Source of the DNA: Escherichia coli O157:H7
GTDB taxonomy: Bacteria; Pseudomonadota; Gammaproteobacteria; Enterobacterales; Enterobacteriaceae
Direction: 5' to 3' (one strand)
DNA length: 64,000 nucleotides
NCBI RefSeq assembly: GCF_013167455.1
Contig: NZ_CP038328.1
Below, in pieces: positions 3,001 to 6,000 of this stretch. Every line of letters begins with the position of its first letter. Positions within the stretch are counted from its first letter, which is position 1. A program made the position numbers.

Positions 3001-6000
3001 TCCCGCTTCCAGCGCACGCTGAGCAAATCCGGCGTATGTTTGATGATATCGCGCAGTGCATGGATCACCGTGTCCTGGGTGTTGGCGCAAATTTGTAGCA
3101 ACACATCACCATGACATAACGCCGCATCCAGCGAGTCGTTGGGAAAACGCGTCATCTTCTGCAACTTTTTCGGCATCTGTGGCGCAAGGCCAAAGCGCTC
3201 ATCAAACAATGAGTGACCCACCGATAACGTGATGGTGAGATTATCGGGCGCAATGTAGCCGCCAAGAATGCCGGAATCGAGTGGTGGCAGGCGCGGATTT
3301 GGCGTTTCTGGTGCCGCTCCGCCCTGAGTCAGAAAAGCAAAACGCTGAGTCAACAAGCGAAACAACCGTTCAAGATCGGCTTTATCGCTGGCAAGCACAT
3401 CAAACGCCACCAGCATCATTGCGGCCTGTTGTGGCGTCAGGATCCCTGCCTGATGCTCACCATAAAACGGCTGTTTCTCATTGCGTGCAACCGGTGAAAG
3501 CGTACCCGGCGCACTTTGCGTTTTTTGTGCATGAGCGACCGGACAACTTCCCGCCAGCGCCAGCGCACCAATGCCTTTCAGTAAACGTCGGCGTGACGGT
3601 TCATTCACGCCGTTTTTATCTTCATACTGCATAATGCTTAATCCAATCCCAGCACACCGCGAAGTTGCGCCAGATCTTCCGCCAGCGCAGTAATCGGTCC
3701 TTTCAGTGCATTCCGGTCGGCATCGGTCAATTTGTCGTAGGTTTCAAAACCGTCTTTAGTACGGTATTTCGCCAGAATGGTATCGACCTTTTTAAAGTTG
3801 GCATCGACTTTTGCCAACAGTTCCGGGTTAGCTTTTTGCAGTTGTGGACGCAGCAGATCGACAATTTTCTGCGAGCCTTCAACGTTAGCCTGGAAATCCC
3901 ACAGATCGGTGTGGCTGTAGCGATCTTCTTCACCGCTGATTTTGCTGGCTGCCACTTCCTCAATCAGTCCGGCTGCACCGCCGACCACTTTTGAAGGTGG
4001 GAAAGCCAGTTCACTGATGCGTTTTTGCAAATCGACCACATCGGTATAAAGCTGGTCAGCGTACTGATCCATGCCTTTGGTGGTGTTGTCGCCAAACAAT
4101 GCTTTTTCCAGACGGTGGAAACCGGTGAATTTTGGATCAGCGGCTTTTTGCTCGTAATCATCTTCACGGGCGTCAATGCTGCCATCCAGATCGGAGAACA
4201 GTTCAGCAATCGGTTCAATGCGCTCATAGTGCTGGCGCGTCGGCGCATACAGTGCTTTCGCTTTTTCGATATCGCCTGCTTTAATCGCGTCGGTAAAGGC
4301 TTTGGTGTCGGTCACCAGCTGTGTGGTTTCCGCCATGACATACGCTTTATATGCAGTAATTGCACCACCAAGACTTAACAGCGCATCACTTTGCGCCGCA
4401 TCCGCCGTTGCCTCACCTTTGACGATCAACTTCCCTTTCGGGTTAGTCAGCAGACCGCAGGTCATATCGTATTCGCCAGGCTGTAAATTCGCCGTCATTT
4501 TCTGGCTAAAGCCAGGGGCGATATTTTCCCGCTCTTCCACCACCATCACGCCTTTGAGGATCTCCCATTCCAGCGCCTTCTGGCTGTGGTTCTGAATAAT
4601 GAACTGTGTTTTCCCGGCGTTAACCGTAATGGTCATCGGTTCGCACTGCTTATCCGTCACGGTCACTTTGACCTGCGGCACATCAGCGGCGTTAGCCATA
4701 AAAGCAGAAGAAAACAGCGCAGCCACGCTCAACTGCAATGCGTTACGGCGGAAGTTAATGGTCATGACGAGACTATCCCTTTAAAGTATGTTGTAACTAA
4801 GCAAGAGTTTGCGTCGTATTTGTTACGCGGAGCGAGACGCTGTCGCCCCTGCGCGTGGTGGCAGAGCAAATGCCACCAGCGCCGGGATGAGATAAATAAA
4901 CCAGACGGCGACTTCGCTGACGCTCGGCGCTTCCTGATAGCCAAAAATCCCTTCCATCAGCGTGCCAAACAGCGAGTGAGTTGAGAGCACCGCACTCATA
5001 TCGAAGGCGATTTCCTGAAAGTGGTTCCACAATCCGGCTTCATGAAATGCGCGAATGGCACCAGCTGCCAGCCCTGCGGCGACGAAGAGAATAAACAGGC
5101 TGGTCCATTTAAAAAATGCACCAAGATTGAGGCGAATACCGCCCCAGTAGAGCAGGAAGCCTAGCACCACGGCAGTAGCAAGACCGAGCATTGCACCCAG
5201 CGGCGGCCAGATCCCGACATCTTGTTGAAATGCCGCCAGCAGGAAAAAGACCGACTCCAGCCCTTCCCTTGCAACGGCAAAAAAGACCATCATCACCAGC
5301 GCCCAGCCATGATGATTTCCACGCTGCAATGCGCTATCGACAGCCTGCTCCAGTTGTACTTTGACGTTGCGCGACACTTTGCGCATCCAGAAAACCATCC
5401 AGGTAAGGATCACCACGGCGATCACCGCCACGATACCTTCAAACAGTTCCTGCTCTTTTTGCGGAAATTCGCCGGTGGTTTCGTTAATGAAGATCCCCAA
5501 GCCCAGGCACAACGCAGCGGCAAGCAACACGCCAATCCACATCACACCAATCCATCGGCCTCGCTGGGTACGCTTAAGATAGCTGGCAATCAAACTGACA
5601 ATCAGCGCGGCTTCAAGTCCTTCGCGCAACATAATGAGAAACGGAACAAACATGCCACCCACCCTTAAACGTTTTTCTGAGTCAATCTATGCAAAGAAAA
5701 GTAAATCGCAGTGATAGCGATTATCATTACGCTAAAGAAAAATACAAGCGGAATATTTATAAAATGATGTTGGAATGTAAAAATGAGGAGATCAAATCCG
5801 GAGAAAAAAGCGATTATTTTAAGGTATTTAGCTGACGTTTCGCCCGGCAGATGAAGCTTGTACGAATGTTGGTGGCGACAAACTCGCTGCAGCGTGCCCG
5901 AAGGGTTGAATTTTCAGTTAGTCGTTTCACAAAAGAACGTTGTTTTTTGCTTATTAATAGATAGTGATAAGGTTGTGAATGAAATTATACCTCATCTCCT

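Follow-up and report, generated by a model that had tools for sequence, protein, structure and literature searches.

The window analysed here, a stretch of 64,000 nucleotides from Escherichia coli O157:H7, carries the genes efeU, efeO and efeB in that order on its minus strand. The first of these, efeU (4823..5653), runs from an ATG at 5653 to a stop codon at 4823-4825 and comprises 276 intact codons plus the stop (831 nt, zero internal stops). An in-frame GTG at 5662 is the mechanical start of this open reading frame and would add three codons; RefSeq, which annotates the identical O157:H7 DNA as efeU (WP_000497942.1), places the start at the ATG. The product is predicted to be an Ftr1-type inner-membrane iron permease. 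It scores 331.2 bits against the NCBIfam equivalog model for EfeU (NF041756, cutoff 255), 351.7 bits against TIGR00145 (cutoff 303.8) and 300.3 bits against the Pfam family FTR1 (PF03239, cutoff 25), the last match extending end to end over residues 1-275. Judged by these profile scores, the family assignment is far beyond chance. A sequence search of the PDB with EfeU found no homologue.

Two REGLE (REXXE) motifs were located by motif search, the first at residues 10-14 (5612..5626, minus strand) and the second at residues 129-133 (5255..5269, minus strand). A Kyte-Doolittle scan over 19 residues, which is a crude method and no dedicated topology predictor, gave seven hydrophobic segments (residues 5-23, 38-56, 70-88, 119-137, 152-170, 185-203 and 248-266), with the first motif inside segment 1 and the second inside segment 4. 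This is the layout of Ftr1-type permeases as it is known from the topology of Ftr1p, namely seven segments with motifs in the first and the fourth. The preliminary description of this DNA had claimed an intact efeU of 276 codons with both REGLE motifs, and had named a premature stop or a disrupted motif as the finding that would speak against it. Both parts of the claim held: the frame is uninterrupted, the motifs stand at the residues given above, and neither a premature stop nor a disrupted motif appears in the efeU of the window.

A gap of 57 nt separates the efeU stop from the start of efeO (3638..4765, minus strand, 375 aa), whose predicted product is a periplasmic iron-binding component combining a cupredoxin with an M75 (imelysin-like) domain. 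EfeO exceeds the curated cutoffs of the NCBIfam EfeO models (773 and 481 bits), contains the Pfam domains Cupredoxin_1 and Peptidase_M75, is identical to K-12 EfeO at 374 of 375 residues and matches PDB entry 7WGU, 'Iron uptake system protein EfeO' (E=7e-230). The third gene, efeB (2361..3632, minus strand, 423 aa), begins 5 nt past the efeO stop and encodes a predicted DyP-type haem peroxidase/deferrochelatase. EfeB bears a twin-arginine signal, SRRRLLKG, in which the RRRLLKG motif is visible, scores 617 bits against TIGR01412 (above the curated cutoff), contains Dyp_perox_N and Dyp_perox_C, and shares 417 of 423 residues with its K-12 counterpart. Its best PDB match is 3O72, 'Redox component of a tripartite ferrous iron transporter' (E=8e-267). 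Both 3O72 and 7WGU are solved structures deposited as parts of the EfeUOB transporter.

The order of a tripartite efeUOB operon is therefore present on one strand with all three genes intact, and its neighbours are those found in K-12, with putP upstream and phoH and pgaDC downstream. A consensus scan picked out a weak hairpin resembling a terminator, followed by a T-rich tail, 39 nt past the efeB stop (2304..2322, minus strand), which we regard as a tentative operon end. Over 4823-5800, which takes in efeU and the region upstream of it, the window matches E. coli O157:H7 chromosomes at 100% identity, and RefSeq annotates efeU, efeO and efeB as intact in these identical genomes.

The state of efeU in K-12 is different. 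Annotation lists MG1655 efeU (b4490) as an 830-nt pseudogene and flags W3110 efeU as 'frameshifted'. Pairwise alignment of the window gene with the K-12 allele found 6 differences in 831 positions, of which one is a gap and the five others are all synonymous. The gap falls in codon 36 (GGT, Gly), where the GG dinucleotide of the window (5547..5548, minus strand) is a single G in K-12. Translation of the K-12 allele past this point reads ...RGRWIV and reaches a stop after 36 residues; the loss of a single G shifts the frame and the K-12 efeU product is therefore truncated after 36 residues. The K-12 lesion is thus pinned down precisely, as one G lost in codon 36. That K-12 efeU is a frameshifted pseudogene had been stated earlier, and is borne out by both annotations and by the one-G gap.

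As the whole difference between the intact and the K-12 gene is one base in a GG run, the intact frame might be put down to an error of sequencing or assembly in a short homopolymer, the true sequence being frameshifted as in K-12. Which allele prevails among complete E. coli genomes was determined with two allele-specific probes built so that every 28-base megablast seed spans the indel. The intact-allele probe (54 nt) matched at least 4,959 of 5,426 genomes, whilst the probe for the K-12 deletion allele (53 nt) matched 367. Of the deletion-allele genomes, 60 were listed, and the majority of these either have the names of K-12 laboratory strains, such as MG1655, W3110, DH10B, MC4100, TOP10, XL1-Blue and JM83, or belong to serotype O16:H48. 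The efeU locus is present in 5,417 of the 5,426 genomes; 91 of these 5,417 were matched by neither probe, likely through nearby SNPs that break the 28-base seed. A GG dinucleotide is moreover not error-prone in the way of a homopolymer. With 4,959 independent genomes matching the intact probe against 367 with the K-12 allele, we rejected a sequencing error at 5547-5548 and attach no probability to it. From the same counts it follows that efeU is normally intact in the species. The frameshift is a mark of the K-12 laboratory lineage, and K-12 is the outlier.

Upstream of efeU, the promoter-proximal 128 nt (5654..5781, minus strand) are about 98% identical to K-12, and K-12 homology stops at 5781. 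These conserved 128 nt contain a Fur box, a CpxR-like repeat and a Shine-Dalgarno-like AAGGG. The Fur-box-like 19-mer, CGTAATGATAATCGCTATC, lies at 5713..5731 (minus strand), that is at -78 to -60 from the efeU ATG, and is identical in K-12. In its best register it agrees with the consensus GATAATGATAATCATTATC at 15 of 19 positions, and the 64-kb window has only 2 sites with at least 15 of 19 matches to the Fur consensus, where block shuffles predict 0.13. A putative Fur box had previously been placed at 5712-5730; the site itself is real, at 15/19, but its register was one base off and the best placement is 5713-5731.

Published binding data fall close to this site. The supplement of PMC10164565 gives intergenic Fur ChIP-exo peaks upstream of efeU at 1080516-1080528 in MG1655 and 1081715-1081727 in W3110, as well as a peak in strain W. 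By coordinate mapping, the W3110 peak spans -63 to -51 from the efeU ATG and corresponds to 5704-5716 of the window, and the MG1655 and W3110 peaks, so mapped, share 4 nt with the predicted box at its 3′ end. According to the same supplement, the Fur 'core regulon' of all nine strains, O157 Sakai among them, includes efeO and efeB (ECs1264/ECs1265 in Sakai), and both genes respond to fur deletion in Sakai. The main text of PMC10164565 assigns efeU and efeO to the Fur-2 iModulon.

The second element, a CpxR-box-like repeat (GCAAA-N5-GTAAA, 5691..5705, plus strand), has one mismatch to GTAAA-N5-GTAAA. The pattern occurs 8 times in the window against 3.3 expected, a roughly 2.4-fold enrichment that is weak on its own, and the repeat is therefore kept as tentative. 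It accords with Cao et al. 2007 (cited in PMC9174327), whose title names CpxAR regulation of EfeUOB, and with RegulonDB, where efeU is a CpxR target according to a table in PMC7657598. A scan for sigma-70 consensus sequences gave one promoter-like match in this region, TTTACA and AATATT with an 18-nt spacer at 5781-5752. Across 2000-6900 the same scan returned 5 sites against 6.1 expected from shuffles and hence no enrichment. Because the sites are not above shuffles, we withhold a promoter assignment for efeU.

Beyond the conserved stretch lies a lineage-specific segment of 2,544 nt (5782-8325, boundaries from blastn), in whose place the K-12 putP-efeU spacer has 413 nt. This segment starts 128 nt upstream of the efeU start codon, and K-12 homology resumes at 8326, at the putP stop codon. 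Within it, a 39-nt remnant of K-12 sequence persists at 5867-5904, and its efeU-proximal part is AT-rich (GC 0.33 at 6000-6499). Of 5,426 genomes, 645 have the segment, O157:H7, O55:H7 and O145 among them; identity is at least 97% in the listed genomes of these three groups and drops to about 92% in the remaining strains listed. It contains an open reading frame of 447 aa (6835-8178, plus strand), divergent from efeU and annotated 'hypothetical protein'. Searched against Pfam, this protein gave nothing above cutoff, the sub-threshold matches being DUF1289 (E=0.012) and PipB2_N (E=0.035). Three repeats of about 57 residues can be seen by eye in its C-terminal half, and self-BLASTP detected no internal repeats at E<0.01. 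There is a slim chance that the segment rewires efeUOB expression, or that the 447-aa protein is a new factor linked to iron uptake or a new secreted protein. An effect on expression is unlikely because all recognised regulatory elements of efeU lie within the conserved 128 nt. We consider the segment the one mildly interesting by-product of the analysis.

A rival reading is that the efeU frame is intact and yet the system is silent or inactive in this strain, for example because the 2.5-kb segment, standing in place of the K-12 sequence, took away or altered promoter elements. The sole consensus promoter-like match does have its -35 hexamer exactly at the edge of K-12 homology (5781-5776), and the sequence adjoining that edge is the AT-rich stretch with a GC of 0.33 at 6000-6499. 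However, the Fur box, the CpxR-like repeat and the ribosome-binding region all fall within the conserved 128 nt. Moreover, Cao et al. 2007 describe the system in their title as functional in O157:H7, a serotype that bears the 2.5-kb segment, and expression of the operon is on record in this serotype: in O157:H7 EDL933, regulated efeUOB transcripts have been detected (PMC8524897), and efeO and efeB of Sakai show the response to fur deletion noted above (PMC10164565). A silent operon is accordingly extremely improbable.

What the window carries is almost certainly the efeUOB operon of E. coli O157:H7 in its wild-type, intact form, and no sequence feature contradicts this explanation. Sequence by itself does not demonstrate that the operon functions; that part rests on experiments published for the same serotype. 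By its title, Cao et al. 2007 (Mol Microbiol 65:857; cited in PMC9174327, PMC3852070, PMC7549933 and PMC8524897) describes EfeUOB as cryptic in K-12 but functional in O157:H7, and PMC2808357, citing Grosse et al. 2006, attributes the non-functional transporter of MG1655 to the efeU frameshift. Iron transport activity is reported, through citing papers, both for O157:H7 (Cao et al. 2007) and for intact EfeU (Grosse et al. 2006). As relayed by the four papers that cite Cao et al. 2007, the O157:H7 operon takes up Fe2+ at low pH under aerobic, iron-poor conditions. In the literature it is described as repressed by Fe-Fur and, at high pH, via CpxAR. The initial reading of this locus as a functional EfeUOB system is therefore supported, given three intact genes, scores above curated cutoffs, DNA identical to O157:H7 and published function in the serotype.

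Another account of the locus would give it a different main role, in which EfeB acts as a deferrochelatase on periplasmic haem, independently of EfeU as in K-12, and Fe2+ import is not its main business. EfeB matches PDB entries titled 'Deferrochelatase', EfeB and YfeX promote iron extraction from haem in K-12 (Letoffe et al. 2009, cited in PMC3852070), and K-12 retains intact efeO and efeB despite the efeU frameshift. Against this account, at least 4,959 of 5,426 genomes keep an intact efeU, its substitutions relative to K-12 being synonymous throughout, which argues for selection on the permease, and restoring the in-frame operon in K-12 lets it grow better when iron is restricted (PMC7549933, which cites Cao 2007). 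The two roles can also coexist and are not mutually exclusive. We therefore judge it very unlikely that haem-iron extraction is the main role of the locus.

For the intact ferrous-iron uptake system preferred here, the components suggest the following course of events. EfeO would capture Fe2+ in the periplasm. If the oxidase-permease pair Fet3p/Ftr1p of yeast is a guide, the Fe2+ may then be oxidised, EfeB serving as redox partner, and the iron would be passed to the REXXE glutamates of EfeU and across the inner membrane. When iron is sufficient, Fe2+-Fur is expected to occupy the 19-bp box (5713-5731), which precedes the start codon by 60-78 nt, and so to block transcription. The chemistry is debated, both as to who oxidises the iron and as to whether Fe2+ or Fe3+ crosses EfeU; PMC3852070 describes a proposal that EfeU carries Fe3+, alongside a role for EfeB in extracting iron from haem. 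Deletion of efeOB in an ExPEC strain did not reduce virulence (PMC7549933), and the biological importance of efeUOB is therefore context-dependent.

That O157:H7 has an intact efeU and a functional EfeUOB system, whereas that of K-12 is cryptic, is already known, having been published in 2006-2007, and the contrast has been restated in many later reviews and genome papers. A full-text literature search joining efeU, frameshift and Fur box returned no match. What the present analysis gains is an exact description of the K-12 lesion, a count of the efeU alleles across complete genomes and the placement of the predicted Fur box beside published ChIP-exo peaks. In practical terms, K-12 is ill suited as a model of how E. 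coli takes up ferrous iron at low pH.

Compared with known systems, the closest is EfeUOB (YcdNOB) of O157:H7 itself, which shares the locus, 100% DNA identity and the same gene order between putP and phoH. No difference between the published system and that of the window is detectable, and the latter is an instance of it and not a variant, showing each defining feature of EfeU/Ftr1 and of the EfeUOB operon that sequence analysis can address. Grosse et al. 2006 (Mol Microbiol 62:120) reportedly used strain Nissle 1917. The K-12 efeU pseudogene (b4490, formerly ycdN or efeU_1 and efeU_2) is orthologous to efeU of the window, but is without one G of codon 36, and the corresponding stretch of its putP-efeU spacer is 413 nt long as against 2,544 nt. 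Further Ftr1-type systems named in PMC9174327 and PMC7549933 are FtrABCD of Bordetella, Brucella and Burkholderia, FetMP, and the Bacillus EfeUOB/YwbLMN. As described in the literature, FtrABCD, FetMP and YwbLMN share with EfeUOB an Ftr1-like permease, periplasmic accessory proteins and expression that responds to iron and pH, but their accessory proteins are different ones (P19-type FtrA/FetP, or a ferredoxin-like FtrD). EfeUOB also differs from the Ftr1p/Fet3p system of yeast (Ftr1/OFeT family) in having no multicopper oxidase; its partners are EfeO, with its cupredoxin and M75 domains, and the DyP haem peroxidase EfeB, and oxidation by them is presumed. The resemblance to yeast lies in the permease and its partner: EfeU shares the full-length FTR1 profile and the two REXXE motifs in segments 1 and 4, and the cupredoxin-domain protein EfeO is encoded beside it, an arrangement likened to the yeast Ftr1p/Fet3p pair.

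The intergenic spacer between putP and efeU, the intact iron permease gene that opens the efeUOB operon, carries a segment of 2,544 nt at window 5782-8325 in place of 413 nt of the K-12 spacer. On the upstream side of efeU, this segment comes to within 128 nt of the start codon, and the part of it nearest to efeU is rich in AT (GC 0.33 at window 6000-6499). When complete E. coli genomes were searched, the segment was found in 645 of 5,426; its carriers among the matches listed included O157:H7, O55:H7 and O145, with the other listed strains at ~92% identity. Within the segment, RefSeq annotates an ORF of 447 aa on the plus strand (6835-8178), divergent from efeU, as a 'hypothetical protein' (WP_001247490.1). 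Three repeats of ~57 aa, opening YVKLTVDDMRKWAA, YAKFTLEHIRQWAA and WVTFTFGDIVQWAN, were discerned by eye in the C-terminal half of the protein. A search against Pfam returned no match above the cutoff, one weak match being to PipB2_N (E=0.035).

Probes specific for the intact and K-12 alleles of efeU, which span the codon 36 region, both failed to match 91 of the 5,417 E. coli genomes holding efeU. Moreover, plasmid records contained 7 matches to the intact-allele probe and likewise 7 to the efeU region. Further efeU variants or lesions might be included among the 91 probe-negative genomes or the plasmid-borne matches.

Two points of gene annotation were also noted. The phoH ORF (window 953-2017, minus strand) encodes 354 aa from its first ATG, in agreement with the K-12 annotation (1,065 nt), while RefSeq gives only 789 nt (262 aa) at the identical O157:H7 locus; this difference in length is a start-codon annotation discrepancy. 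In the W3110 RefSeq record, a 100-aa 'hypothetical protein', Y75_RS24810 (1081440-1081742), is annotated antisense over the region that holds the efeU promoter and the Fur box. As a matching annotation is absent from MG1655, Y75_RS24810 probably represents a spurious gene call.

A 6-bp inverted repeat, AATCGC...GCGATT (5704-5722, minus strand), overlaps the predicted Fur box upstream of efeU in its 3′ half and was flagged as terminator-like by our scan. This repeat coincides with a 13-nt Fur ChIP-exo peak interval, TATCACTGCGATT, reported upstream of efeU (PMC10164565) and corresponding to window 5704-5716. In a consensus scan of the window, only one further site, GATATTCATTAGCATCATC (56834-56852, plus strand), matched the Fur consensus at 15/19 positions. 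In the O157:H7 record, this candidate site lies close to a tRNA-Ser, with tccP2 on one side and a fragment of an espV gene on the other.

A pattern search identified a CpxR-box-like direct repeat, GCAAA-N5-GTAAA (5691-5705, plus strand), in the stretch that separates the Fur box from the efeU start codon. This putative box would fit the published control of efeUOB by CpxAR, though the pattern shows only weak enrichment over the whole 64-kb window (8 found versus 3.3 expected).
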